The notes: generated by a model from the letters alone, not told the origin. DNA of 62,930 nucleotides, filler included, from 11 parts of 11 records of this genome joined end to end with filler, not necessarily neighbours in it; one strand, 5' to 3'. Positions 5,181-59,639 are shown, numbered from the whole stretch's first letter. Made by a program: numbers and translations.

Positions 5181-5280
5181 NNNNNNNNNNNNNNNNNNNN
5201 NNNNNNNNNNNNNNNNNNNNNNNNTTAATTAATTAANNNNNNNNNNNNNNNNNNNNNNNNNNNNNNNNNNNNNNNNNNNN
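5181..5280. other. Artificial contig linker
   Basis: N44-TTAATTAATTAA-N44; the core has stops in all six frames. Confidence 0.98.
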
Positions 5281-9922: not shown

Positions 9923-10022
9923 NNNNNNNNNNNNNNNNNNNNNNNNNNNNNNNNNNNNNNNNNNNNTTAATTAATTAANNNNNNNNNNNNNNNNNNNNNN
10001 NNNNNNNNNNNNNNNNNNNNNN
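9923..10022. other. Artificial contig linker
   Basis: N44-TTAATTAATTAA-N44. Confidence 0.98.
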
Positions 10023-11317: not shown

Positions 11318-13083
11318 TCAATACGTGGCCCCTTCTTCTACATCATCACTAGTGGCTGTCGGATACGCGAGCCTGACAAATGCAACATCGTGCTTGCCAA
11401 TTGTTGCGTTAAAGTTGCCCGTGGCTGGTGGGAGGTCCGACTGGTGAATGATGTCGCGTACATGCATGCTTTGCCGTGGAGATAGCCCAAGCTCTGTCCA
11501 GGAAACGGACAATGTCGTCTCCGTGGATCCACGATTTAGCAGCAGCACCGCGATGTCTGCTCCTGAGCCATGTCCCAATGTCCGGGCGAACACCTGTGCA
11601 GTGATATCTAGGGAGCGTGGTCCGCCCGGCGGCGGTACTGTTGCACCAGCGACCAAACACATCGGCACCGGCGTAGTAAAATCAGATGCTGCGGCACTAG
11701 GTGCTAAGGATATGGTCCCCGTCTGATGATTTAGTGTGAAATTCTGGGCCGTGCTGCCGTCACACTTGGTCAACGAGACTACCCCTCGCCCCTTATTGAG
11801 CCGAGCTTCTGCGGTGAGACAAGTACCAGCATTCACGTTTGTGATACTGTGGGCGCCGACCTTCCACTGTTGATTCTTGTACCCACACAACACTGTATTG
11901 TTTGGGTGACACTCGTGGACCTGCACAGGGGTACCATTAGCAATGTTGCACTCATACGCATCCAGGCACCCGAATGCTGAGCCACCAGCGCGTAGCGACT
12001 GATCAGCCTCGTTCTGCCACGGCAGCAACCCTACCGCTGCTGTGTGGTTGCATGGCACCAACGAAAGAGTACCATCCGGGGCATTCGTTGCAGGCCTCGC
12101 AGCCTGCGAGATTAGCACCGGGGGCTGAGCCCCTTTTGCCTGGTTGACAGCAACAATTTCAGAGTTGAGGATGAGCTCCAGACATTCCGGGTGGTCACGG
12201 CGCAGAGTTCGTAGATCCACACCCAAAATCAAGGGGCTTGCGAGGATCGCCCACACAGCATAGTGTGCTCGGTACTCCGCGAGTGTCATTCCACCTCCGT
12301 GTGACATCGCGCCTTTGCCATAGTTGCACACCTGGAGCATGTCCGCATCGTTCCACGAGCCTGGCACAGAGTAGTCAAGGCGTGACATCTGGAGCATCGA
12401 ATCTATGTCACCGATGATCCCGCCTTTCGCAGGACCGAGATACCAAGAATCGAAAGTGTTTGTGTACTCAATCAACAGAGCGTTGGCCAAGCTATGACGC
12501 TCTGTCGTAGTCCACTCCGCAGGTGTGCAATGAATGAAACCAGTGATCCCGAGCTCCTTTTGAGCCGTCCATTCTGCCGCTGTGCCCAGAGCTGGGGCGA
12601 CTGTGTCAGGACAAATCGAGTAATAGATTGATCGGTTGGTTGCGTTCAGTGCGTCACCTAGAGCCTTAAAGGCAGCGTATTGCGCGCCTGGCTGGATGCT
12701 CACTTTGCCTCCCGCAGTCGGGCCGCTCGTTGGCCCGCAGAAATCGACTTTCAAGTAGTCTACCTGCCAATCGTGCGCGTAAGTATCAGCGTCTATCTGG
12801 TAGTAACCCTGCGAACCTGGGCCGGTGCCACATTCGTGGGCTGAGATATCAGTGTAGACGCCTAAGAGTAGACCTTTGGCATGCAGGCGATCAGCGATAT
12901 GCCGCATTCCGTTGGGGAATTTTGCAGGATCGACGACAGGCTTGCTCGACGCTGGATCTCGAGCGCGCAGAATGGCACCGGCATCGATATTGATGTATCG
13001 ATAGCCAAGCTTGCTGAGGCCGGTGGCGATGAGGGCATCGGCAGTCTCCAGTATGTTCTTCTCATTGACCGCGTTTCCGAAAC
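11318..13083 (-). CDS. GH27 alpha-galactosidase-like protein with an inserted ricin-B (CBM13) lectin domain; 5' exon missing
   Basis: Exon starts after a CAG acceptor at 13084-13086 (FGNAVNEKNILETADALIATGL..YINIDAG..KFPNGMRH). Motifs GVYTD, YLKVDFC, PGSWNDADML, HYAVWAILASPLILG, ricin QQW/QNF repeats and a C-terminal beta-sandwich. Confidence 0.9.
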
Positions 13084-13247: not shown

Positions 13248-13347
13248 NNNNNNNNNNNNNNNNNNNNNNNNNNNNNNNNNNNNNNNNNNNNTTAATTAAT
13301 TAANNNNNNNNNNNNNNNNNNNNNNNNNNNNNNNNNNNNNNNNNNNN
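13248..13347. other. Artificial contig linker
   Basis: N44-TTAATTAATTAA-N44. Confidence 0.98.
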
Positions 13348-14163: not shown

Positions 14164-17100
14164 TCACATTTGCACAATTGCCCAAATGACCACAAGCAGT
14201 ATGGACGTGGTGACAGTTTGCGCGTACGATGTCTTCTCTGGCACCCCACCGCCCTGGCCCTGCGCCTCGGGATCGTCAGCAAGTGGCTCATAGTTGCACC
14301 CCGGTGGGCAAGTGCCGTTTATAATTGAGCAAGCCGGCGTGTGCGCAGCTGTTGCCAAGACTTCGTCGCACCCTATGGGACACGCAGGCTGCAGCGACGT
14401 GTGCGTGCTGCCAGCTACCCAGTCACTCAAGCTATATCTGGAGTCGATGTAGTCAGTCATCTCAACTGCGTCAAAGAAGATTGTTCTCTCGTCGCGAATT
14501 TGAGTATACATGCCCATCTTGAAAAAACTGAAGTCGGTGTCGTCTCTGTCGTTGAGGTTCAGTCCAGTCGCTTCGAACACACTTGTGCCGTCGATGTAGA
14601 TATTAATGTACCCCACAGAGCTATCCTGTGATGGTACCATGTGAATTTTCAGCGTGTGCCACGTGTCGGGGCTAAGGGTAGCAATTTGGTGATCGTCGTG
14701 TCGGTCGCCGGATAAGCCATAATGTTGGTAAGGGCTCTGCACATACAAGTGGTAATCTCCCTCGTTGCTGAGCCTTAACTCGAAGTTCGGATCAGAGCCT
14801 GGATATTGCTTGTGCTGGAATATGATCGTGGAATATCGCGTGACCTGATCCCAGGCGTCTGATGGGAGGTACACACTGGCGCTGATATAGACATCCCTGT
14901 CAGGAAAGGCGCGCGTGTTCCAGTCTCTGTTGCCCAGTTCTACTCGTTTGGTGTAGCTCTTCGGTGTGGATGATCCGTAATCGGAGCTATCGCCGTGAAA
15001 GCGAAGAATGTAGTCGCCTTCGGGAGCAACCACGTTATAGTCACTCGCTAAGACGCTGGTAATACTATGGATATTGCTCGCTACAAAGCGGGTTTGGACC
15101 CCATCGATATTCTCCCAGGTGCGGCTGTTGTCGTCGTACGAATACGTCAACCAGAATGGCGACGGATTGTTGCCGGCAACAGTACCATCTTCACCACCAG
15201 AAAATATGCGCCAGTTGTCACCGCTGATACTCGCGGATGATATCGTTCCTGGCCTACCGTCCAAGTTGCCGTACGTGACTTCAGCGCGAATGGTTTGGCC
15301 GCTCACTCCATGATCACTCACGACTAGTGTCGATGTTGTAGCTCCTGCAATTTCAGCATTATTCGCGTACCATTGGTACCTAGTCCCTTCGTTGCCATAA
15401 TCTGATAGCTGGGAAGCGTCGAGCGCAACTGTACCGGGTGCTGCGCTTGAGCCTGTCACATCCCGATTCAAACTTCCAAGCACCCGGAAAATGGCGCCAG
15501 CGTTGCCAAATTCACACGCAGTACCGTCGGTGCTGCTGCCCGTGCACGCTGCCTCGACTGCAGCGACTTCAGTCGCTATGCCTGTGCACGTGGCCTGTGC
15601 TGGAGCTGGAGCCGGAGCTAGAGCGTTGTCGACCGAGTCGCAGTCATCTGCCGACCCTTCTGCACTGTCCGTTGTTACCACAAGCTCTGGTGGGTTAGTG
15701 TTGTCGTCTCGGCGGCTCTCGCACTCAAACTTCTGCCAATTGACGCTCGAGTCCTCTACCCAGAAGGTCAACGCTGTGGCACCGTCGCTCACCGTCTCGG
15801 CAGTGAAAGCGCTCACGTCCCACTCGAACCATTGACCCGTGGCAGTCACATCCACGCTGGTAATTGCGTCGCCCTGAGTCGGGCCGTTGTTCCATGTGAC
15901 TGTCGTCTCGTCCCAGTCACCACTAGCCCTGTGCACTGTGAAAGCAGCGCCGCTGTCTTTCACATACGTTGTGTGCAGTCTGAGCTTAGCGGTTCTGACC
16001 TCTGCATCAGCGTAAGACTCCAGGCTGAACCGCAACACGCCGACGATTTGGGCGTCAGGTTTGCCATAAACCTCCACGTCCCGCCAGTTAGCGTTGTTGT
16101 CGGGCTCTGCTTCGAGTAGTGAAGCATCGTCCGTCGGGTTAACTGTGGTTGTGGAGGAGCACTCAGCTTCTCCACTTCCCGGATCAGTAGGAGGTGGTGG
16201 CGGTGGTGACGGCGGTGGTGACGGCGGTGGTGGCGGCGGTGGCGGCTCATCAGTACCTGGCATCAGTGTAGTTGACACTGGGCAAGCTGGCGAGGGCTCC
16301 GCCGCGGCCTCACTCGGGATAGCCACTGAGGCATGCTGGACGACAAACTCCGGCCTGTTCGAGTTCGACTCCCTGACACTGTTGACTTCGATCCTCTCGT
16401 AGTTGTTGTCGTCGCCCTGTATCCAGAACGTGATTGAGCTGAGATCGCCCCCCGCCTGGAGCCTAGCGTTGAGATACTCGCTGACGTCGAATTCTACCCA
16501 GCCAGTGCTAGAGATGGATACCGTTTGCAGTCTCTCCTGGGGATCCGGAGCGTTGTTCCAAGTCACTGAGTTTTCGTCCCACGATTCTGCGCCCACAGTG
16601 CTCCAAATTGCGAAGTTCCACGGACCTCCATCTTTCAGAGTGACGACGTACACCCGGAGCTCAGCGCTACGAATTTCGGCCGCGCCCACTAGGGAAGAGG
16701 CGTCCACTTTGAAGATGCCTGCAATCCAGACTTGAGTCGGTTTGGCGTAAATCTCAACTTTCCCCCAGTTTGCGTTGTTGTTCGGATTACCTTCGAGAAG
16801 CGACGCGTCGTCAGTAGGCCGAAGTGTGGCCGTGCTCAGCACGGTGCCAACGGCAATGCGAATGTGAGCAGACTCTCCCGTCTTCGAATTGGTGTCCGTA
16901 GCAACCACATAGATGGTGTATCCGTAATTTCCCTCGGGTGTCCAGCTGATTGAGTATGGTGAAGACGTCGCCGTGCCGAGGAGAACGGCGTCACTGTTTT
17001 CGTTCTGAATCGCGTAAAACTTCACGTCAACAATCGCGCCGTCGCCTTGCGTAGTGGATGCAGCGAGATTCACTGAGCCACCGGCAACGTCGTCGCCCGT

Positions 17101-18333
17101 TGAGTGGGAAGTGATGTTTGCTGTTGGTGGAGCGTTCCCGCTCCGAACACTCACCACGGTGGACGAGGCGACATTCCCGTCTTGATCTGTGACCCGTGCA
17201 GAGAACTCGTGGAGCCCATCTGTAGGCGGATTGAATGTCGCCGAGTACGGGTATGATGCGTCCTCGGCGACGAGACATCCGCCTTGAACGTAAAAGCTCA
17301 CTTTCGCGATCGAGCCAGGCCCGCCGATCCCGTCGGGATCGACGGCAGTCGCGCTCAACATAATTTCCTGCGAGTTGGTGTTCTCAGCGGTGATTGAAAC
17401 AGATGGCTTGTCCTGATGCTCAGCCACCCAGTCGGCCTCACTGCCGAACCCAATGCTGGCCAAGTCGGTAGTCATACCAACGGCGTCGAAGTAGATCACT
17501 CGCTCGTCACGAATCTCGGTGTACATGCCAAACTTCACGTACCCTCCTCCACTGCTCCTGACGCCTAGCATGTTCCTTCCAAATTCCTGGAACACCAGCT
17601 CGCCGTTAAGGTATACCCGCACGATACCATCGGAGCCAGTGGCCTTGCGATAGTAAATCTTCACGTCGTTCCATTGGTCTGGTTGTATAGTGGCGATCTC
17701 GCGGCCCTCATCGCCCTGCTCCCATAGGCCTTCGCCCCCCCTGTAGTAGAGCTTATAGTCCCCAAGGTTGCTGACACGAAGTGCTCCGTGTGGGTCGGAG
17801 GTCATCTTCCACTGCGTGATGACGGTGGAGTATTTGGAGACCTGATCCCAGTTCTCGGAGGGCAGGTAGAATGACGCGGTGTAGTACACGTCGTCGCCGT
17901 TCAAGTACGTGTAGCCGATGGAGCCTATCTCCGCTCTGTTCGAGGCGTAGCTTCCGCTAGGGACATAATCGTTGAGGCCCCGCTCGCGCCCGTCGGCGTA
18001 TACCTTGAGCACGCCCTGGCCCTTGCGCGCCCAGTCCAGCCCGGTGAGCACCTCGTGACCGTGCAGCGACGAGATGCCGAGGTATGTGTCGCAGTTTCTC
18101 GGGGAGTAGCCTCCGACCCCGCACTTGCATTCGGTGATCTCGTTGCCAGAGTTGCTGCACCCATCAACATTGGACTGGATGTTGATGCTGAAGCTGGGCT
18201 CCAGCGCAGGGCTCAGCGCAGGGCTGCCGTCGGGAAAGCCACTCTCCCAGTCTAGCTCGAAAGTAGGATTCTGCCCGCGCACTGACGCCAGCAGCGCCGA
18301 GGCCACGAGCGCGGACCGCGCCATGCCCAGCAT
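14164..18333 (-). CDS. Secreted, probably GPI-anchored protein: lyase-like jelly roll, 2 Ig, 2 DNRLRE/CBM96-like, Cys modules and a second lyase-like domain
   Basis: Intronless 1389 aa with a signal peptide. Two domains with RxE..Y..S.YLP..Q(W/H)K..(Y/F).K.GMY (PF14099-like). Two bacterial-type Ig repeats (V.FY..PYS), two PTDDASL.E..SA.LR domains, a poly-Pro linker and a hydrophobic C-terminus SILLVVIWAIVQM. Confidence 0.8.
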   Translation of the reverse strand: MLGMARSALVASALLASVRGQNPTFELDWESGFPDGSPALSPALEPSFSINIQSNVDGCSNSGNEITECKCGVGGYSPRNCDTYLGISSLHGHEVLTGLDWARKGQGVLKVYADGRERGLNDYVPSGSYASNRAEIGSIGYTYLNGDDVYYTASFYLPSENWDQVSKYSTVITQWKMTSDPHGALRVSNLGDYKLYYRGGEGLWEQGDEGREIATIQPDQWNDVKIYYRKATGSDGIVRVYLNGELVFQEFGRNMLGVRSSGGGYVKFGMYTEIRDERVIYFDAVGMTTDLASIGFGSEADWVAEHQDKPSVSITAENTNSQEIMLSATAVDPDGIGGPGSIAKVSFYVQGGCLVAEDASYPYSATFNPPTDGLHEFSARVTDQDGNVASSTVVSVRSGNAPPTANITSHSTGDDVAGGSVNLAASTTQGDGAIVDVKFYAIQNENSDAVLLGTATSSPYSISWTPEGNYGYTIYVVATDTNSKTGESAHIRIAVGTVLSTATLRPTDDASLLEGNPNNNANWGKVEIYAKPTQVWIAGIFKVDASSLVGAAEIRSAELRVYVVTLKDGGPWNFAIWSTVGAESWDENSVTWNNAPDPQERLQTVSISSTGWVEFDVSEYLNARLQAGGDLSSITFWIQGDDNNYERIEVNSVRESNSNRPEFVVQHASVAIPSEAAAEPSPACPVSTTLMPGTDEPPPPPPPPSPPPSPPPPPPTDPGSGEAECSSTTTVNPTDDASLLEAEPDNNANWRDVEVYGKPDAQIVGVLRFSLESYADAEVRTAKLRLHTTYVKDSGAAFTVHRASGDWDETTVTWNNGPTQGDAITSVDVTATGQWFEWDVSAFTAETVSDGATALTFWVEDSSVNWQKFECESRRDDNTNPPELVVTTDSAEGSADDCDSVDNALAPAPAPAQATCTGIATEVAAVEAACTGSSTDGTACEFGNAGAIFRVLGSLNRDVTGSSAAPGTVALDASQLSDYGNEGTRYQWYANNAEIAGATTSTLVVSDHGVSGQTIRAEVTYGNLDGRPGTISSASISGDNWRIFSGGEDGTVAGNNPSPFWLTYSYDDNSRTWENIDGVQTRFVASNIHSITSVLASDYNVVAPEGDYILRFHGDSSDYGSSTPKSYTKRVELGNRDWNTRAFPDRDVYISASVYLPSDAWDQVTRYSTIIFQHKQYPGSDPNFELRLSNEGDYHLYVQSPYQHYGLSGDRHDDHQIATLSPDTWHTLKIHMVPSQDSSVGYINIYIDGTSVFEATGLNLNDRDDTDFSFFKMGMYTQIRDERTIFFDAVEMTDYIDSRYSLSDWVAGSTHTSLQPACPIGCDEVLATAAHTPACSIINGTCPPGCNYEPLADDPEAQGQGGGVPEKTSYAQTVTTSILLVVIWAIVQM

Positions 18334-18705: not shown

Positions 18706-18805
18706 NNNNNNNNNNNNNNNNNNNNNNNNNNNNNNNNNNNNNNNNNNNNTTAATTAATTAANNNNNNNNNNNNNNNNNNNNNNNNNNNNNNNNNNNNNNN
18801 NNNNN
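18706..18805. other. Artificial contig linker
   Basis: N44-TTAATTAATTAA-N44. Confidence 0.98.
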
Positions 18806-23602: not shown

Positions 23603-23702
23603 NNNNNNNNNNNNNNNNNNNNNNNNNNNNNNNNNNNNNNNNNNNNTTAATTAATTAANNNNNNNNNNNNNNNNNNNNNNNNNNNNNNNNNNNNNNNNNN
23701 NN
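23603..23702. other. Artificial contig linker
   Basis: N44-TTAATTAATTAA-N44. Confidence 0.98.
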
Positions 23703-30748: not shown

Positions 30749-30848
30749 NNNNNNNNNNNNNNNNNNNNNNNNNNNNNNNNNNNNNNNNNNNNTTAATTAA
30801 TTAANNNNNNNNNNNNNNNNNNNNNNNNNNNNNNNNNNNNNNNNNNNN
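30749..30848. other. Artificial contig linker
   Basis: N44-TTAATTAATTAA-N44. Confidence 0.98.
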
Positions 30849-31326: not shown

Positions 31327-33909
31327 ATGGCCGAGACATCGCCGCCCGTGGTCGGCGGGCAGCAGCCAGCCAGCAATGCGCCCGTGGCTGCTACCAGCAC
31401 CGCGGGGTTAGCGGCAGGGGGCGTGGTGGCGCCGCCCGTGCGTCCGGTGAGCGCTCCGGCCCCCGCTCCAGCGCCGCCCGTGCGGCCCGTCAGCGCTCCC
31501 GCTGCTGCGGCTAGTGCTGCTGCTGCTGGGAAGCCTCCGTTCACGATGACCGAGGCGGTCACGCCTGTGGCCGCCCCTGTGGCTGCGCCTGTGGCCGCGC
31601 CTGTGGCCGCGCCTGTGGCCGCGCCACCGCCGCCGAAGAAGAACCTAGACATCGACTTCGGCTGCGCGGCGTTGCGAGAGCACCGACTGGAAGCCACGGT
31701 CGAGCGCGAGGTACTAGAAAAGCAGCTTCAGGTCGCGCAGACCTGGTCAAAGGTGCGGAATGTGGACGCCGCGACCGCTCGGTTCAAGTACGCGCGCGTG
31801 ATGCCCGGCCCGAACGGAGAACCGCCGCAAATGGTTGCAACCCCAGCTGAGATCGAAGTGGCCCGATGTGATCTCCGGGTGAAGGAGATCGAGCTCAAAA
31901 TGGCCGCCCTCAAGGAGGACGAGCTACGGGTCAAACTGCGGGATGCCTGGCGCAAAGAAGAGGAGGAGATGCAGAAGCAGCTGGCGACGTTGAAGCACAC
32001 CGTCGAGACGGTCAAGCTCTATCCAGCCCTGTCCGCGATGAAGCCGCGCACGACATTCTTTTTCTCAGACTGCCAGCAAGAGGGTGCCTGGGGTATCGGC
32101 CGCTGGTTCTGTGAGGTGCTCTCAGAGCGCCCGAACTGGCGCCGCTACCCAGCAGAGAAATGGTTCGTGACCAAGAAAGGCACGCAGCTTTGGTCACCAC
32201 TCGGTAAGGTGTACATGGACTACACGGACCAGGACGTGTACTCGTACTGCTCTTCTTTGGTCCCGGGCTCGGAGTGGATCTCAGATAAGGCGCGCCTGGC
32301 CAAGTCGCTCAGCGATCACGGCGGAGTGCCGGACAGTGAGGGCAGGCTGAGGCTGTTGCAGACTTGGTATATCCACGCCGGTAAATGGTCCGCCGCACCA
32401 AATTCGGAGGGCGGCTGGGATGAGGCCAAGTGCGGCGACGATTACGCGCCACCGGGTGCGGTAGGAGCGGAGGCGGCTGCGGTCAAAGAGGGCGTAGACC
32501 CAGATCCAGATTCCACTGTCTGGTTCCTCAAGGAAACAAATCGCAATTACGCAGCCGGAACGTTCGTCCATGCCTCAGCGGCAGCATGCCGGATGCACGC
32601 CGAGTCCGACAGGAACTACGTCGTCCAGCAGCACTACCAAAATCCAATGCTGCTTGACGGAAAGAAGTTTCACATACGTGCTTACCTGATGTGTCACTCG
32701 CCTGCAGGCTCCACGCGTGTGCAATGGTACATTTACAAAAACCCTGCCATCCATGGAGGAAACGTCGCGAAAGGAGAAAAGGACTGGACTCCGACTGACC
32801 TAGATCGTGCCGCTCAAATCACGCGGGACCGCTCCTTTCCTTTGGGAAACTGGGAGCACTATGACAAGGTCTGGGCATTGATCAAAAAGAACATATCTCC
32901 GATGTTGAAGCATGTTTCCATCAAGCTCACGCCGGCTGCAAAGGCAGCTTATGAGCTCTTCGGAATTGATATAGCACTGTCCGAGAATTGGGATATGTGC
33001 TGTTATGAGATCAACTCTGGTCCGTGCGTGAAACCTGAGAGCAAGCCGATGCTTCATGATCTACTCGACATCGCTTTGCCGTTCGGCTACGATCCGAAGC
33101 GCCAGGACATGGCTAAAAAGGCATTCGAGATCCTGGTCGATGAGGATCCTTCAGTGATGCGTGCTGCACTTGGGGTTGAGGAATCAAGGCAGCAGTCGCC
33201 ACCATCGCAGCAGCCAGTGGTACCGCAGCCGCAAACTGGGACGGACGCGGTAGCAGTACTGGCACCGCCACACGTACAAGTGAAGCAAAGTCCCACACCG
33301 GTACAGATAGTGCCACAGGACTGGGAGCAGCCACTTGCAAACCTGTCCGCGAGATTCGGGTGCGGGAGGGACTTGGCTATCGCAGCCATGCAGGAAGCCA
33401 ACGGGCATGCAGGTAAAGCAGCTTCATCGCTCCGAGAGAAATTCCAAGACTCCCCTTTAAAACGTGTGGAGCTGCCAGTGCCGGCCGACGTGGCCGAGGC
33501 GCGCGCGCAGGCGAAGGCTGATGATGCCACAGGAGGGCAGCACGACCTGCAGGAGCAGCTAGATAAGCTACAGAGAGCCGAGGCCACTGCTGTGGCTGGC
33601 GTGTCCCGACCTGCAGAAAACCTGGAGTCCTCTACCCCAGCTGATACTCTAGGGCAAGTGCGTACTGCAGTCCCGGTCTCGCCAACGATCGGTGCTCCCA
33701 CCGAGTCAGATACTAAGGACACTGGCGATGCGGCAACGCAAGAGGTACCGCTGGCCGTACCTGGAGCATCGTGTGCGGTGTCGGTAGTTGATCGCGCACA
33801 ATCAGATACGAAGGACGCTAATGATGGGCCAGAGCAAGCCGGTTTGCTGCCCCCTCCTGTACAAGTTCCTGAAGCTTGGAACTCGGTCACTGCAGATGCA
33901 GACAGATAA
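31327..33909 (+). CDS. Tubulin-tyrosine ligase family (TTL/TTLL, ATP-grasp) protein
   Basis: WFLK..GTFV, YVVQQHYQNPMLLDGKKFHIRAYL, YELFGIDI..YEINSGP. Pro/Ala-rich and coiled-coil N-terminus; possible UBA-like segment near the C-terminus. Confidence 0.85.
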   Translation: MAETSPPVVGGQQPASNAPVAATSTAGLAAGGVVAPPVRPVSAPAPAPAPPVRPVSAPAAAASAAAAGKPPFTMTEAVTPVAAPVAAPVAAPVAAPVAAPPPPKKNLDIDFGCAALREHRLEATVEREVLEKQLQVAQTWSKVRNVDAATARFKYARVMPGPNGEPPQMVATPAEIEVARCDLRVKEIELKMAALKEDELRVKLRDAWRKEEEEMQKQLATLKHTVETVKLYPALSAMKPRTTFFFSDCQQEGAWGIGRWFCEVLSERPNWRRYPAEKWFVTKKGTQLWSPLGKVYMDYTDQDVYSYCSSLVPGSEWISDKARLAKSLSDHGGVPDSEGRLRLLQTWYIHAGKWSAAPNSEGGWDEAKCGDDYAPPGAVGAEAAAVKEGVDPDPDSTVWFLKETNRNYAAGTFVHASAAACRMHAESDRNYVVQQHYQNPMLLDGKKFHIRAYLMCHSPAGSTRVQWYIYKNPAIHGGNVAKGEKDWTPTDLDRAAQITRDRSFPLGNWEHYDKVWALIKKNISPMLKHVSIKLTPAAKAAYELFGIDIALSENWDMCCYEINSGPCVKPESKPMLHDLLDIALPFGYDPKRQDMAKKAFEILVDEDPSVMRAALGVEESRQQSPPSQQPVVPQPQTGTDAVAVLAPPHVQVKQSPTPVQIVPQDWEQPLANLSARFGCGRDLAIAAMQEANGHAGKAASSLREKFQDSPLKRVELPVPADVAEARAQAKADDATGGQHDLQEQLDKLQRAEATAVAGVSRPAENLESSTPADTLGQVRTAVPVSPTIGAPTESDTKDTGDAATQEVPLAVPGASCAVSVVDRAQSDTKDANDGPEQAGLLPPPVQVPEAWNSVTADADR

Positions 33910-34067: not shown

Positions 34068-37000
34068 TTACAGTGACCAGAGCGTATACTGCCCTCCTGG
34101 GGCCTTCGTCAGCTGCAGTTCGCGCTCCTTTTCAGGACGGCTGTCGTCGGTCACCTCGCCAATTGAAAATGTGCAGTTCACCTCCCTGCCGCTGAACCAC
34201 GAGCTAGAATTGTCGAACTCAAATGTAAGCTCGCCGTCTGTCTCACAGAGGTGCGAGCCCTGGACCCACCACGTGCTGCAGCCTTCGCCGAACTGAGTCA
34301 GTGGGAGCACGACCAGCTCTGCACCGCCGCCACCACTGACAAATGTGCCGGTTGCAGAGAGCGACGAGTCACTTATGACAAGGCTCCAGCAAAGCCGCTG
34401 CCCTGGGCTGAGGGTAGCAGTGACTAGCTCTTTTCGTCGAGCTCCAACATCTAGCGTGGTTGGCTGGAGCAATCCAAGCTTGAGAGGCGGCTGCGGTGGC
34501 TGCTCTCGCGCCGCCTTTTCCGCGTTCAGCAGCGCAGTCGTTACAGCAGCCTTATTCTGCGTTGGCGCACCATTCACCTCCACAACTCGCTGCCCGACGC
34601 GGAGGACTTGCGTAGTACACTCTGGTGCTAGCTCGAGCACTACTCCTCCATCAGAGAGCTGGGCGATGCCAGAAACACCGTAGCCGTACCTTGACACATC
34701 TTCGTCGTCACGTGGACGGATTGTCACTTGGTGCTGTGGTACTGGTACCCACGGCCCGTCATCAAGAGAGTCTGCGCTGCTACTGTTGTGCGCAAGATGC
34801 ATGCTGCCTGGTTTGTGCGGATACTGCAACTGAGATGTCGTGATACCACTATCCCCACCAGATCGACTTGGCGTAAGCACAGTAGACTCCGTGTCGCGTC
34901 GTCCTGACTGCTCCTGTAGACATGTGAACCAGTCAGAGAAATCATCTGCGTTGTCTGCAGCAAGAGTGTGCACAACGCCCTCGATACCGATCTGGAAAGG
35001 GAACCGTATCTGGTGCCCCTCGCTTTCGCCAGGCATAGCAGCTACCTGTGCTAGACGAGTCACAGTGAACTCGTGTCGTGGCAGTCTTATCGTGTCCACA
35101 GGCACAAGAGCAGTTGAATCTCCCTCGGTTTCATAGAAAACGAGTGTGCCCTCCTTCAGCAGCACAAAGAACCGGTGCTTCGAGGCGCCCATCCGCCCCC
35201 GTTGATACAGCCAGCCGTCCTGGACCACCGACCAAAGATTCATCCTCCTTCCTTTGTAACCATCGGCATCTGCCGTGTCGGCCCAGAGGCCGGAGTGTGC
35301 AGCATGCTGCGGAAAGCGCTGATTGACGCTCCAATGAGCCACTGGCCGCGACAGCAGTGCCTCCAGTGTGAAACGTCTTCGCGCTGGTGGCAGTGGCTCA
35401 CTGCCCGGTGTAGCGGGCAGTGGTGATATGGGCGACTCCAACCAGCGATTGAAGTAACCAGTCCATGTTTTGGCAGTCAGTGGCGGCCGCAACACAGAAG
35501 TTAAGCTCGGATCGTAGCTTTGATTCTCGCATGCCGGATCGAGCTCAAGCTCGTCCCATACGCTGACATACTGCTGTTCTCGCGACTCGTAGCGTTCCCG
35601 TTCACAATTGAAACGGAAGTCCGAGTATGCGTTTGCATACATCATCTCAACAAGGCGCAGCAGGAGCCGCTCATTAAACTGGAAGAAAGTAGGAAATGCC
35701 TGCAGCATTTGCCACACCGAGTCAATGAACTGGAAGAAGACAGGCGACTTCTCCTCTGCCGCAGCTCCCCAGACGCGGTCACGAAACTTATGGCCGAATG
35801 CCTCCCATTCCTTTAGCAACAGCATCCTGAACCCGGCAATCGTCCGGTAGTACGGATCCAGACAAAGCTCGGCTAAGGAGCACAGTTGGGCAGTCCGGTC
35901 CCAACCGTCAGAGCAGTGCAGTACTACTGTTCTCTTCTTGTCACACACCTCTGCTACCATCATCCGTGCTCCCGACAAAATCCGTCCGACGTATGCCAAC
36001 CATCCCGTAGCAACTACTTCAGCTGCCCACACGCGATCTCCTGCCGAACTGGGAATGTCGGCTGGCGGGTGTTTCCGCACGAGTGCGTGCATTGCTTCTA
36101 GTGAGTCCCGCATCACATGAATGTTGTCAATATTCAAAAATACGAGGCTTGCGTCGACACCTGACTGTTGATAAGACGCCACATCCTCAGCACCACCGCC
36201 TCTCCCACGATTAGCAACGGCGCTCAGGTACGGTCGGGCATCAAGCATGGCAATAGACTGTGACTCAGGATTGGCGGATGCGATCAATGCAAAAAGTCGT
36301 TCGTCTGCCTCGGACTTCTGTCCGCGCACTCCAACAAGTGGCTGAGCACATCTTACTATGGCAGCGTGTGAAGTAGGATGTATCCAAGAGAGGACAGGCA
36401 AGCGTTGCTTGCTGCGAAATTTCGCTACTTCCTGCACGTCAGCATCATTAATCGATGCAGGAACGTAGAACACATCGGGATACGTTGGGCAAAGCTCGTA
36501 GTTGCTGTTAAGCGAGGTTGCTCGCCAACGCGACGTAGCGCTGTTCAGTCCCTGTCGCTCCCATTCTGACCGCATACATGCAGCACCTGTCCATTCTAGT
36601 TGTGCGGGTGCATTCGGTGGGTTGATAAGGAAGCTCCACCTCTCAGAATGTATTCGCTGATGCATATCACCCAAGCTCTGTATTACGTCAGTGATTGTTT
36701 GCATTTCCTTGCCTGGTCGCATCCGACCATTTCCCCCAAAGGTCAATCGCTGCAACGATTTCGATAACGCTGAGCCAGGTGTCTTCAATTGAAAGATGAG
36801 GCTTTTGAGGCAGCTGTGCGCAATCGTGGAGTAAATCGTCCCAATATCATACTCTGCCATATCCATCAGGAGCAGAAGTTGTTGGTCGAAAATGAAGTAC
36901 AGACGTTGCGAGTCCTTGTAAGTGACTCTTAGTACTGGCGTCGCGAAATCAAAGCCGGTTGGATCGTCGTGCAGCCGCAGCTTTTCCTTGGCGCAGAAAT

Positions 37001-39315
37001 CTGCCATCGACACAAGCGATGTGTCGATGAGGATTCGGGGAGGCCCTTGCGCCCCAAGCACAGTGTCATCTGTCTGCGGCTCGCGCGAGACGAAAATCAA
37101 CCTTGATGTCGTGACGAACAGGCAGCCACGGTGTAGCTGCTGGTCCATGAGCTTCAGAACACATGGACCGCCGCATCGAACGATCTCTTCTCTTCCTTCC
37201 AGCCCTTCCTGCAATTTATCCTCCAGCCAAGCCTTTGACTCAATCGTAGCGTCACGCATATGGTCAGCGTGCTCTCTCGTCTGGCGCGACTCGTCAATTT
37301 TGCTCTGCTCTGATTCTACTTCTGCCTGGTGTGCAGCGCGAATGTCCGGATCGATTACCCACTCGGGATTGAAAGCTCGCTCGATGAGAGCATCGGCATC
37401 AAACAGATGGGAGGGTGCAGCCCTAATGACCTGGTTCAACTCGTGTGGGTCCGATGACGCAAGAATCTGTCGCGAGCACATGTCGAGGGTCGCGAGCCCG
37501 ACGCGCAACAACAAGTCGCGCGCCGCAAGATCCCCCCCATTGCGCTCGACCCCGGTCTGATTCGTGTCTACAAACGTCAGTGACAGTGGCCGGCCTGCGT
37601 TGAGGATGAGTGTTTTCGTTTCGTCATATGTTAGGCCGCTCACTCGCTGGCCTTGCACAGTAATGACGCAAAGTCCGGCCTTGAGCTCTGGATGTCTCTG
37701 ACCCGTTACTATCGAAACAGTATCTACCACCAGTGGGCTCGCCCCAGCGGGAAACGTAAGGCCTAGTTTCTTGTCAGCCTCGGTGAACACCACGTTGATC
37801 GGAGCGCTCGCTTCCTGGCTTGCCAAGACCCCAAACATGCAGTCCCACACGCGCAACGCTGTCTCCGCAGGTAGCACGTTGAAAAACAGGCACAGAAACC
37901 AAGACACGAAGGCGACCTCGGCCATGACAGAATGACGCACAAAGTGCTCGTGAATAGCTGGCAAATATAGTTCTGTCAACGTCATCAGAGTCCTCGTATC
38001 AGACTGGCACCCAGCCATACCGGCAGTATGGTAGTGCGACAGGAGGTTCTCTTCCAGCAATGCTAGCATCCAAAAAGCATCTTCCTCCCGGGTGGGTCGA
38101 TCCTGTAGGGCAATCAACATTACGGCCGAGATGAAATTCATCGACTGACAGTACCCAACGCCTGGGTTCCGGAGGGAGTAGGCGACGAGCACATTCCGCA
38201 GCTCGCCCAACGCCTCCTTTGTGTCGATAAAAGTATGCAGCGGAAACGTGCGCGGCAGGTCTTGGTCAATCGTCTGCACCGACTCGGACTTCGGCCCCTC
38301 CAATGCTGCCACTTCGTCGACTAGTTCGGCGTAGTGTTTACCCCCCGCACCACTAAGGGCGGCTCGGCTGCGTTGGGCTAGTCGCGTCCAGACCTCCCCT
38401 CGCATCTCGTGCGGAATACCTCTGCGGACAAGCGACGACAAGTCGACCGGGGCGGAATCTGCATCAAGATATGCGCGCCAGTTGGTAGCCTGCTCGTCGT
38501 TGAGCTTCCGGCGTCGCTCCTCCTGGCTGCAAGCGTAGATGTAGAACTCTGGCTGCTTTGTGTCGATCCTAAAACCATACCGATCGTGCGTCTGCCCTGT
38601 GTTATACGGCGAGGATTCCCAGTCCAGCGCAGTCGCGCCGCTAACCTGACCAAAAAGTTTTTGCAGCGTCCATTGGTCCAGTAGCGTTTCGAGCATTTCG
38701 ATACTGGCTGCGTCGGTCAAGATCTGACGCGACTGCAGGTGCGCCACGTATTCGTACGCCGCCTCTATGCCCACTCCGCCGCTGCGCACTGCCAAGTATA
38801 GCACAGTTGATGCGACGGTAAGCGCCGCCTTCTGCTCCTCGTTGATTCGCGCATCGCGTTCCATATCGCTCATATCGCGTACATCAAACTCGCCCATCGT
38901 CCGCTCCTTCTCAGCGGTTAAAGCCTCCAACGCCGCCTCCTCCAACAGCGCCATGTTCTGCCAAAGTGGCGATTGCATGACCGCAAGCTCTTCCGCGAGC
39001 CGGCGCTCGATGCCGTCATCATGCACGCAGAACAGCAGCTTCACAGTACGAGCGTAAGCGGCTGCGGTGGTCGCGTCCTCTTGCTCGTCGCACGCGCCCA
39101 GCGCTGCGACCAGCAGCCGGGCGAGGTGGTCGAAGAGCACTGGCGGCAGCTCGCCGCCTGACTGCTCGTGCCGCGAGTACAGCACCATCAGCTCCGCGAG
39201 CGCAGCCCTCCCCGGCTGGTGCGAGAACATATCCATCCCCGCCGCCATGTACGTCTCCAGCTCGGGATCATCCGGCTCCCGCTCGCAGATCCCGCGGAGC
39301 AGCGCGACCAGCGCC
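34068..39315 (-). CDS. Fusion: helical domain, TBC Rab-GAP (PDZ-like insert), GRAM/PH, myotubularin phosphatase, PH, PDZ-like, GOLD
   Basis: TBC: LVRRGIP..RGEVW, IDQDLPRTF, YSLRNPGVGYCQSMNF, LRVWD. Myotubularin: NYELCPTYP, FRSKQRLP, RCAQP, LDARP..AVANRGRGGG.E, NIHVMRDS, HCSDGWDRT, LCLDPYYRT, EWEAFGHKF. PH: GWLYQRG..RFFVL. GOLD: LTFEFDNSSSWF. The frame extends upstream of the ORF-track Met to a CAG acceptor near 39316; the true start is unresolved. Confidence 0.88.
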
Positions 39316-39557
39316 TGTCAGCGGCGACGCAGCCCAGGCAGCGAGAGCGATCAGAGAGAGACTGCAAAACACGAGGACCCCAGCGGGCTATCTCGCGACG
39401 AGATGCCCGCCACAATGACTGGCGCGACGACTGACAGAAGATGAAGAAAAGGCACGAAGACCAAATACCAGGTCGAGCTGACTGTCCACTGTGACGGCAG
39501 AGCACACAGCCAAGCGGACTACTACAATGTCGTGCAGTGGTTTGTGTGGTGCGCAAT

Positions 39558-39799
39558 AAAAGTGGGCGACCACTCAGTGGCGACCAGCAAAAGTGGGCGA
39601 CCATTCGGCTATATATATGTATATGTAAAAGTGGTATATGTGCGCACCGGCTCGGCCGTCCCCTCTTCCTCGATGACCGGCGCCACGCGATCGCGGGGGC
39701 TGATCAGACTCGGCGGCGGGACGGCGGGCTCTGCTGGCTCCATCTCTCAGCTAGCGCCCCATACTATTGACTGGGGGAGGCAAAAGTGGGCGACCATTC
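39558..39799. repeat. Dispersed direct repeats AAAAGTGGGCGACCA (three copies plus a partial)
   Basis: Copies at about 39558, 39589 and 39782; partial GTGGCGACCA at about 39577. Confidence 0.75.
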
Positions 39800-40108
39800 C
39801 CCCATGCTGGTGCCGCAGCGCCGCTGGGATCAGAGACGTTCGGAGTACGGAAATCTCACTGATAAATACAGTGCCAAGGCGATTGCCCACCAGCGCGATT
39901 TTCGAAAATCGAGAATTGATCGTGAAATTCGGGGGTTTTGACTCGCGGCGGGCGGGGGGCGGGGGTTGATTCAAAAGGTCGTTGGGTGAACTGAGCTGGC
40001 AAAACAATCCGACAGCGTCTCACCAAGGGTACTAGATCTAGTACACGTATTCATACTACTATCCTAGATCTAGGATAGTAGTAGACTCAACTGGGTTGGT
40101 CACTCCCG

Positions 40109-40208
40109 NNNNNNNNNNNNNNNNNNNNNNNNNNNNNNNNNNNNNNNNNNNNTTAATTAATTAANNNNNNNNNNNNNNNNNNNNNNNNNNNNNNNNNNNN
40201 NNNNNNNN
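40109..40208. other. Artificial contig linker
   Basis: N44-TTAATTAATTAA-N44. Confidence 0.98.
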
Positions 40209-44141: not shown

Positions 44142-44241
44142 NNNNNNNNNNNNNNNNNNNNNNNNNNNNNNNNNNNNNNNNNNNNTTAATTAATTAANNN
44201 NNNNNNNNNNNNNNNNNNNNNNNNNNNNNNNNNNNNNNNNN
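44142..44241. other. Artificial contig linker
   Basis: N44-TTAATTAATTAA-N44. Confidence 0.98.
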
Positions 44242-48428: not shown

Positions 48429-48528
48429 NNNNNNNNNNNNNNNNNNNNNNNNNNNNNNNNNNNNNNNNNNNNTTAATTAATTAANNNNNNNNNNNNNNNN
48501 NNNNNNNNNNNNNNNNNNNNNNNNNNNN
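48429..48528. other. Artificial contig linker
   Basis: N44-TTAATTAATTAA-N44. Confidence 0.98.
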
Positions 48529-59539: not shown

Positions 59540-59639
59540 NNNNNNNNNNNNNNNNNNNNNNNNNNNNNNNNNNNNNNNNNNNNTTAATTAATTAANNNNN
59601 NNNNNNNNNNNNNNNNNNNNNNNNNNNNNNNNNNNNNNN
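59540..59639. other. Artificial contig linker
   Basis: N44-TTAATTAATTAA-N44. Confidence 0.98.

Follow-up and report, generated by a model that had tools for sequence, protein, structure and literature searches.

A gene from marine DNA predicted to join a TBC RabGAP domain and an intact myotubularin phosphatase domain in a single protein

The 62,930-nucleotide (nt) stretch of DNA analysed here, called the window below, consists of 11 short contigs joined by ten N44-TTAATTAATTAA-N44 linkers, and gene order across the linkers is meaningless. TBC domains inactivate Rab GTPases, while myotubularins remove the 3-phosphate of phosphatidylinositol 3-phosphate (PI3P) and phosphatidylinositol 3,5-bisphosphate (PI(3,5)P2); the gene described here, on the minus strand of one contig, carries both domains in a single reading frame. 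The whole gene lies inside the contig at 30849-40108, to which its genomic context is limited. Its main open reading frame (ORF), at 34068-39248 on the minus strand, runs from ATG to stop over 1726 codons (5181 nt) with zero internal stops (P0001, the query), in agreement with a preliminary description of the sequence which had noted a single frame of more than 1700 amino acids (aa). Residue numbers below are those of this 1726-aa ORF.

The related proteins P0002, P0003 and P0023 begin about 60 residues earlier than the 1726-aa ORF, and a short upstream exon encodes the matching peptide, suggesting the following two-exon structure, which is predicted from homology and reading frame:

39648-39743, minus strand: exon 1, 96 nt, 32 codons from the ATG at 39743, MEPAEPAVPPPSLISPRDRVAPVIEEEGTAEP; from reading of the sequence and the N-termini of P0002, P0003 and P0023
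39315-39647, minus strand: intron 1, 333 nt, GT..AG, with two copies of the 15-mer TGGTCGCCCACTTTT inside it
34068-39314, minus strand: exon 2, with 22 codons followed by the 1726-aa ORF (ATG at 39248); stop codon at 34068-34070

The spliced product would be 1780 aa, longer than the 1726-aa ORF. With these intron boundaries the frame is restored, as is the conserved junction EP/ALVALLRGICER, and the unspliced frame holds stop codons. Of the limits originally proposed for the gene, 34068 to 39315, the lower one stands, but 39315 is the last base of the splice acceptor and the gene continues in the upstream exon. One contig from an RNA library covers 39317-39541, inside intron 1, and because it covers intron sequence, DNA or unspliced RNA must have been present in that library. 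Five variants were seen in about 250 covered intron bases versus 26 in the 5181 coding bases, and variant density in both the 3' flank and the intron was above that of the coding frame.

Both domains exceed their Pfam cut-offs, so that the expected co-occurrence of PF00566 and PF06602 in one protein was borne out. RabGAP-TBC (Rab GTPase-activating protein; PF00566) was matched at residues 281-472 (E 1.1e-40, 140.1 bits versus a cut-off of 25.2) and Myotub-related (PF06602) at residues 890-1219 (E 3e-115, 385.3 bits versus a cut-off of 25). By profile and by motifs, the query thus belongs to the TBC family and to the myotubularin family alike. The features of the two domains are as follows, with model confidence given as the AlphaFold2 (AF2) predicted local distance difference test (pLDDT) score:

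37815-38603, minus strand: TBC RabGAP core, residues 216-478; Pfam PF00566, closest PDB chain 4p17_A, AF2 pLDDT mostly 60-86
38244-38270, minus strand: Arg-finger motif IDQDLPRTF, residues 327-335 (R333), by motif reading
38136-38156, minus strand: Gln-finger motif GYCQSMN, residues 365-371 (Q368), by motif reading
37515-37814, minus strand: PDZ-like module 1, residues 479-578, a predicted insert in a TBC-fold loop between RVWDCMF and LLLRVGLA
37353-37514, minus strand: TBC C-terminal helices, residues 579-632, from the 4p17 alignment; AF2 pLDDT 60-78, 91-96% identity to close relatives
37164-37352, minus strand: predicted long helix (possibly a coiled coil), residues 633-695, from AF2 secondary structure (helix 634-678)
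35439-36608, minus strand: myotubularin phosphatase domain, residues 881-1270; Pfam PF06602 and MTMR2 structures
35892-35918, minus strand: active-site loop HCSDGWDRT, residues 1111-1119 (C1112, R1118), by motif reading

TBC domains are recognised by the motifs RxxxW, IxxDxxR and YxQ, and all three are intact in the query, as RGEVW (283-287), IDQDLPR (327-333) and YCQ (366-368). The Arg-finger motif is kept in P0002, P0003, P0023, P0005 and P0046, takes the form DLDR in the oomycete proteins P0093 and P0186, and is lost in P0142 of Blastocystis; of the 9 alignment rows covering the TBC fingers, 7 keep them. In the phosphatase loop HCSDGWDRT (CX5R), none of the nine residues varies across the 11 TBC-myotubularin family proteins that were aligned. 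The best solved relatives of the phosphatase are MTMR2 (5gnh and 1zsq, about 1e-93 over residues 895-1270) and MTMR1 (3e-88), which we take to be catalytically active myotubularins, and the CSDGWDR loop is identical to that of MTMR2, MTM1 and MTMR1 (PDB 1zsq, 5gnh, 5c16) save for the Cys-to-Ser change of the crystallised mutants, although those proteins are far smaller and lack RabGAP, PDZ or GOLD modules. With all catalytic signatures complete and conserved, the phosphatase is apparently active and the dual-finger TBC domain apparently a GAP, as predicted from these motifs and as the preliminary description had read them.

The alignment of the TBC domain to 4p17 breaks off at RVWDCMF and is taken up again at LLLRVGLA (positions 379-427 of the search query corresponding to chain 260-308), which indicates that residues 216-478 and 579-632 are one TBC fold, interrupted by an inserted module of roughly 100 residues. 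This insert resembles a PDZ domain: 10 of its 11 PDB matches at E<=10 were PDZ domains, with a best E of only 0.026, and a further match, to P0010 at 240-317, covers the PDZ domain that Pfam gives there (244-309). It is present in P0002, P0003, P0023 and P0041, with its tail alone in P0006, and is absent from P0005 and P0046.

A fusion of this kind could arise as an artefact, either of a chimeric contig or of two adjacent genes read as one, and the fragmentary nature of the assembly, with short contigs joined by linkers, would allow for this. The gene, however, lies wholly inside one contig, and a single 4963-nt metagenome contig from DNA run X1 spans 34604-39566 with 18 differences from the window. 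As it differs, the X1 contig is taken to be a separate assembly, though the X1 sample may be the same as that of the window itself. In DNA run X2, three contigs tile 36079-37822, and no loose end was reported in that zone. A joint in X2 from 38953 to 39945, skipping 991 nt, was disregarded as its shorter side is 21 letters only, and loose ends at 34523 and 34577 came from an unrelated high-depth contig matching 18-19 nt.

Natural variation and relatives from other assemblies also speak against an artefact. Among the natural variants in the coding frame, 17 of 26 are synonymous, where chance would give 24% (binomial p 9e-6). The variants range over residues 144 to 1645, so the synonymous excess is found in both halves of a frame which runs 5181 nt without a stop codon. 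Full-length relatives with the same order of modules were found in other assemblies, namely P0002 and six cluster mates (1821-1836 aa), P0003 (1801 aa), P0023 (1817 aa) and P0025 (1815 aa), with identities to the query of 87% for P0002, 76% for P0003 and about 83% for both P0023 and P0025; in all, at least six other assembled full-length proteins share the module order at 76-90% identity. Close relatives are 73-96% identical in the domains and 62-87% in the linkers. P0046, a Trinity transcript from another organism, also carries TBC and myotubularin in one ORF.

RNA adds little here. In the metatranscriptome runs X13 and X15, contigs of 151-599 nt are scattered over both halves of the gene and none bridges the two, which may be counted for an artefact; gene parts without RNA cover in these runs carry no meaning. 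Across 36600-37500, where coverage had been singled out as a check, DNA contigs span the region with no loose end reported, but no RNA contig bridges it. Taken together, the locus is one genuine gene, the chimeric or two-gene reading is close to excluded and we rate it as very improbable, and the pairing of TBC and myotubularin is conserved under purifying selection.

Beyond the two catalytic domains, the preliminary description had listed GRAM/PH, PH, PDZ-like and GOLD domains. Of these the PH domain holds, on Pfam and Foldseek evidence, while the others are sub-threshold or transitive, so that the accessory domains are best treated as leads of unequal strength, with PH solid and the rest placed more weakly on profile or transitive evidence:

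38604-39248, minus strand: putative N-terminal helical SBF2-like region, residues 1-215; hhalign to P0042 and P0007
36849-37163, minus strand: PH-GRAM-like region, residues ~696-800; sub-threshold in Pfam, sitting before the phosphatase as in myotubularins
34908-35228, minus strand: PH domain, residues 1341-1447; Pfam PH E 3.2e-09, over the cut-off
34467-34736, minus strand: PDZ-like module 2, residues ~1505-1594; PDZ_6 at the aligned place in P0006
34071-34466, minus strand: putative GOLD-like C-terminal domain, residues ~1595-1726; hhalign to the GOLD domains of P0005 and P0008

Residues 1-215 had no direct match in Pfam and are modelled by AF2 as helical with pLDDT below 50, but hhalign pairs them with the N-terminal ends of P0042 and P0007 at probability 96.9% (E 1.5e-10), two proteins that score 25.4 and 24.6 bits for Pfam SBF2 (PF12335), just over the cut-off of 22.1. 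In the PH-GRAM-like region, Pfam GRAM (E 0.067) and PH-GRAM_MTMR6-like (E 0.091) were both sub-threshold, and the aligned place in P0041 gave GRAM at E 5e-4 and 20.3 bits, still under the 23.6-bit cut-off. For the PH domain the best Foldseek match was 4.8e-05, and all of the matches listed were PH domains or PH-containing proteins. The second PDZ-like module has a Pfam PDZ_6 E of 0.21 in the query versus 1.4e-6 in P0006, with AF2 pLDDT of 56-81, and a PDB sequence search with it gave no convincing match. The C-terminal end has no Pfam match and an AF2 pLDDT below 50; it aligns with the Pfam-supported GOLD domains of P0005 and P0008 (hhalign probability 87.7%, E 3.4e-6, 99 columns). The AF2 models of 1290-1726 (mean pLDDT 46.7) and 1-700 (mean 55.8) were built from shallow alignments of 11 and 13 rows. 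Docking of the TBC domain (225-635) against PH-GRAM plus phosphatase (700-1272) scored 0.01 versus a mark of 0.34, with no controls, and counts neither for nor against contact between them.

The architecture, which the preliminary description did not know from model organisms, is not rare. A word-index search, in which 8000 candidates were scored and 10 proteins reached E<=0.001, found PF00566 and PF06602 together in P0002, P0003 and P0005 besides the query. An exhaustive search with residues 30-1229 against 1.84 billion representatives gave 16673 matches at E<=0.001, which were plain myotubularins nearly throughout; TBC plus myotubularin was found by phmmer and Pfam in 4 of the 149 representatives listed besides the query:

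P0046: EukProt Trinity transcript, TBC plus myotubularin, also with an hSac2 domain
P0093: Lagenidium giganteum DBA04086.1, TBC plus myotubularin
P0142: Blastocystis KAK8798785.1, TBC plus myotubularin
P0186: Achlya hypogyna OQR84668.1, TBC plus myotubularin

P0041, with a truncated TBC end and the insert, is a fifth case beside these four. P0173 groups near the oomycete fusions in the tree described below but has no Pfam TBC, and was not counted. An ESM Atlas cluster of 67 members, with Oomycota as its commonest phylum, carries PF06602 in 100% and PF00566 in 79% of members; with a score of 0.83 it is a lead towards the fusion in oomycetes. The fusion is thus already present in public sequence databases, without meaningful annotation. 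P0186 is deposited as 'alpha-1,3-mannosyltransferase', while Pfam finds TBC and myotubularin domains only, and the record name is probably a mis-annotation; deposited relatives are otherwise named 'hypothetical protein'.

No description of a TBC-myotubularin fusion came up in full-text literature searches or in passages of the family surveys, although supplementary tables may list it. In the available portions of their texts, a myotubularin survey (PMC2927912) samples Thalassiosira as its sole stramenopile and nowhere mentions TBC, a TBC survey (PMC3655817) nowhere mentions myotubularin, and a paper on the oomycete phosphatome (PMC10925823) mentions neither TBC nor Rab.

DNA of the gene itself was found in marine and seawater metagenomes, with 19 rows among the matches listed, from 15 studies, holding at least part of the gene, and the host is therefore an uncultured marine eukaryote. 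Pattern searches of IMG/VR viral contigs gave 32 matches, none of them a relative, and so no sign of giant-virus origin, and a JGI metagenome protein query returned one weak TBC locus only (L001, on a 1.6-kb contig, 26% identity). The marine protein P0005, from the same clade as the query, has TBC, myotubularin, PH and GOLD in that order, as in the query, but it lacks the PDZ-like insert and adds an ENTH/VHS-like stretch (by the Pfam match of P0008) and a second GOLD domain. Two neighbouring EukProt models in the P0005 cluster bear the label Picozoa sp. COSAG01, which comes from a single-cell co-assembly. In these models (P0032 and P0033, on the same node) a P0005 relative is split in two, one model having the TBC domain's N-terminal part and the other the rest of it plus the myotubularin; the division probably reflects an intron or a broken gene model and not a split gene.

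A FastTree phylogeny of 157 myotubularin domains, which is quick, unrooted and without taxon labels, and from which 27 near-identical cluster mates and rows covering fewer than 250 query positions were left out, placed the query in a 13-row clade (support 99) with P0002, P0003, P0023, P0005-P0009 and P0041-P0044. Some members of this clade carry TBC, while P0007 and P0042 have no TBC but do have the SBF2-like N-terminus. P0046 falls in a neighbouring group, beside C2-myotubularin-FYVE proteins. The fusions from oomycetes and Blastocystis are found elsewhere in the tree, and midpoint rooting makes the root itself the node at which they meet the query. The TBC domains differ in type as well, as those of the query and P0046 are nearest to 4p17 (2e-35 and 1.5e-30), while that of Achlya P0186 is nearest to TBC1D22B, at just 1e-7, and has the fingers DLDRLYP and SYRQGMH. 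With two TBC types and separate myotubularin clades, the fusion may be recurrent, and these comparisons speak for two or more independent fusion events, with one ancient fusion and strong divergence after it as the less favoured alternative. The oomycete and Blastocystis proteins (P0093, P0186, P0142) resemble the query in having TBC N-terminal to a myotubularin with intact CSDGWDR, but they use another TBC type and lie in another part of the tree, the Blastocystis protein lacks the fingers, and none of them showed an SBF2-like, PDZ-like or GOLD-like part.

The familiar fusions of a Rab regulator to a myotubularin are MTMR5 and MTMR13 (Sbf1 and Sbf2) of animals, with the order DENN, SBF2, PH-GRAM, inactive myotubularin and PH. 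Like them, the query places a Rab regulator and a myotubularin on one chain and has a C-terminal PH domain and, on transitive evidence, an SBF2-like N-terminus. Unlike them, it has a TBC RabGAP where they have DENN, its phosphatase loop is intact where theirs is dead, and two PDZ-like modules, one of them the insert, and a GOLD-like end are additional. No DENN came up when the full protein and residues 1-229 were scanned with Pfam, even at E<=10, and the relatives reach just about 60 residues further N-terminally than the 1726-aa ORF. The query is not a member of the MTMR5/13 subgroup, as it has no DENN and its phosphatase loop is not dead, and the contrast first drawn with these proteins (TBC, no DENN, intact loop versus a DENN exchange factor and dead phosphatase) is apt. 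Since residues 1-215 align with relatives assigned to the SBF2 domain, this contrast may reflect homology. The tree gives no support for the link, as none of the nine sister groups checked carries DENN (C2-myotubularin with or without FYVE, myotubularin-FYVE, PH-myotubularin and PDZ_6-myotubularin types, and two phosphatase-only), and it held no labelled MTMR5/13 sequence. An R5 group is discussed in the myotubularin survey (PMC2927912; Kerk and Moorhead 2010).

The nearest standalone TBC domains are those of GRTP1/TBC1D2-like RabGAPs, including 4p17, which are about 400 aa long and have no phosphatase; this placement comes from similarity lists, automatic names and the PDB match to 4p17. The 120 best short TBC matches, at E of roughly 1e-38 to 1e-41, are about 400 aa long and stand alone. 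Where these have a named source, it is in most cases a land plant, and many carry the automatic names GRTP1 or TBC1D2A/2B; oomycete GAPs of about 650 aa are named as well. TBC1D2/Armus and TBC-2 of C. elegans act on Rab7 and Rab5, and FYVE domains bind PI3P. A FYVE domain is present in 3 of the 22 long relatives of this TBC type (P0320, P0321 and P0327; the query and its two close homologues not counted). One of the three also has a LIM domain, and these long eukaryote proteins are a second kind of pairing of TBC with a PI3P module. The GRTP1/TBC1D2 likeness and the FYVE-bearing relatives are leads towards an endosomal Rab as the possible target.

The sole neighbour gene on the contig is a convergent 860-aa ORF at 31327-33909 on the plus strand, which matches the tubulin-tyrosine-ligase (TTL) family of Pfam at E 2.6e-14; its stop codon and that of the fusion gene are 158 nt apart. 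The 15-mer TGGTCGCCCACTTTT has three matches in the whole window, all at the fusion gene, versus 0.02 expected by chance, and the copies are members of a 30-nt direct-repeat family. The element may be a cis-acting or regulatory one, or the remnant of a small repeat. An Rfam scan of the window found zero families at the gathering score. A perfect 30-nt palindrome, TACTACTATCCTAGATCTAGGATAGTAGTA, stands at the very end of the gene's contig, adjoining the linker, and may be an assembly-end or repeat feature. Other contigs hold kinesin and DEAD-box helicase genes, and these and the tubulin-tyrosine-ligase gene fit a eukaryote. Two further ORFs, both carbohydrate-active, lie on other contigs, and the larger of these is bacterial-looking in its domains and may be a transferred gene or come from a contaminant contig. 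The positions are:

39782-39796, minus strand: copy of 15-mer TGGTCGCCCACTTTT, 39 nt upstream of the start codon
39589-39603, minus strand: copy of 15-mer TGGTCGCCCACTTTT, in intron 1
39558-39572, minus strand: copy of 15-mer TGGTCGCCCACTTTT, in intron 1
40054-40083: palindrome TACTACTATCCTAGATCTAGGATAGTAGTA
14164-18333, minus strand: 1389-aa ORF with Polysacc_lyase, CBM96 and bacterial Ig (Big_7) domains
11318-12907, minus strand: 529-aa alpha-galactosidase with ricin-type lectin domains
5181-5280, 9923-10022, 13248-13347, 18706-18805 and 23603-23702: first five N44-TTAATTAATTAA-N44 linkers
30749-30848, 40109-40208, 44142-44241, 48429-48528 and 59540-59639: remaining five N44-TTAATTAATTAA-N44 linkers

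The reading which we favour, with moderate confidence, is that this two-exon gene of an uncultured marine eukaryote encodes a membrane-trafficking enzyme of about 1780 aa, whose two catalytic modules would be coupled on an endosome or phagosome. The PH-GRAM and PH regions, perhaps together with Rab binding by the TBC domain, would bring the protein to an endosomal or phagosomal membrane carrying PI3P or PI(3,5)P2. There the TBC domain would supply Arg333 and Gln368 so that the resident Rab hydrolyses its GTP, while Cys1112 would take off the 3-phosphate of the lipid, and the two identities, of Rab and of lipid, would end together in space and time. Partners or cargo might be selected by the PDZ-like and GOLD-like modules. 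Both activities, their substrates, the compartment and the coupling are what we infer from motifs and family likeness.

Several observations weigh against this reading. The RNA contigs are short fragments, one of them intronic, and do not support a single transcript across the gene. The accessory domains are sub-threshold in Pfam, and AF2 is unconfident for the N-terminus, the insert and the GOLD-like end. The modelled insert, besides being of low confidence, adds 100 residues to the TBC fold and could disturb GAP function. Blastocystis P0142 has lost both TBC fingers and kept CSDGWDR, so GAP catalysis is not needed for the pairing in every case. Finally, the best solved TBC relative, 4p17_A (E 2.3e-35), is a Chlamydomonas flagellar protein which reads H and R at the aligned finger positions instead of R and Q, and hence an endosomal role is not fixed by family likeness.

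Catalytically dead TBC and myotubularin domains can act as adaptors, and the loss of fingers in Blastocystis and the insert within the TBC fold would both suit a protein in which one half only is enzymatic, with TBC serving as a Rab-binding address or the phosphatase domain as a lipid-binding address, and with no double erasure. We consider this unlikely, as all four catalytic motifs are kept in the query and its close relatives, among which the TBC core is 78-89% and the phosphatase domain 82-93% identical. Less probable again is that both halves are active but elsewhere, in flagellar traffic or at the interface of Golgi and secretory pathway. The flagellar source of 4p17 would fit such a role, as would the common occurrence of GOLD domains in Golgi and secretory proteins, and the tubulin-tyrosine-ligase family neighbour might be added, although adjacency is weak evidence in a eukaryote. 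Against it, PI3P and PI(3,5)P2 mark endolysosomal membranes, and relatives of the query's TBC type carry FYVE domains.

Rab GTPases and phosphoinositides jointly define organelle identity, and the usual explanation for their coordinated removal is that separate proteins recruit one another in cascades. The pairing of an apparently active RabGAP and an apparently active PI3P phosphatase on a single chain strongly hints, at the genomic level, at a functional link between the two erasures, and it occurs in several protist lineages and with two TBC types. It corrects the impression that fusions of Rab regulators with myotubularins are of the DENN and dead-phosphatase type only, and it gives a meaningful annotation to deposited relatives that are probably misnamed or called 'hypothetical protein'. 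The fusion offers a compact test object for such coupling, and points to standalone TBC proteins as candidate partners of myotubularins. More speculatively, and with a likelihood that we put as low, a fusion which arose more than once, with a GRTP1/4p17-like TBC in the marine clade and another TBC in oomycetes, could be a Rosetta stone: a coupled RabGAP and PI3P phosphatase would end endosome or phagosome identity, separate TBC and myotubularin proteins, those of animals included, would act as a complex, and the query, with its SBF2-like N-terminus, would be the active GAP counterpart of the MTMR5/13 scaffold. If true, this would be a general rule so far undescribed.

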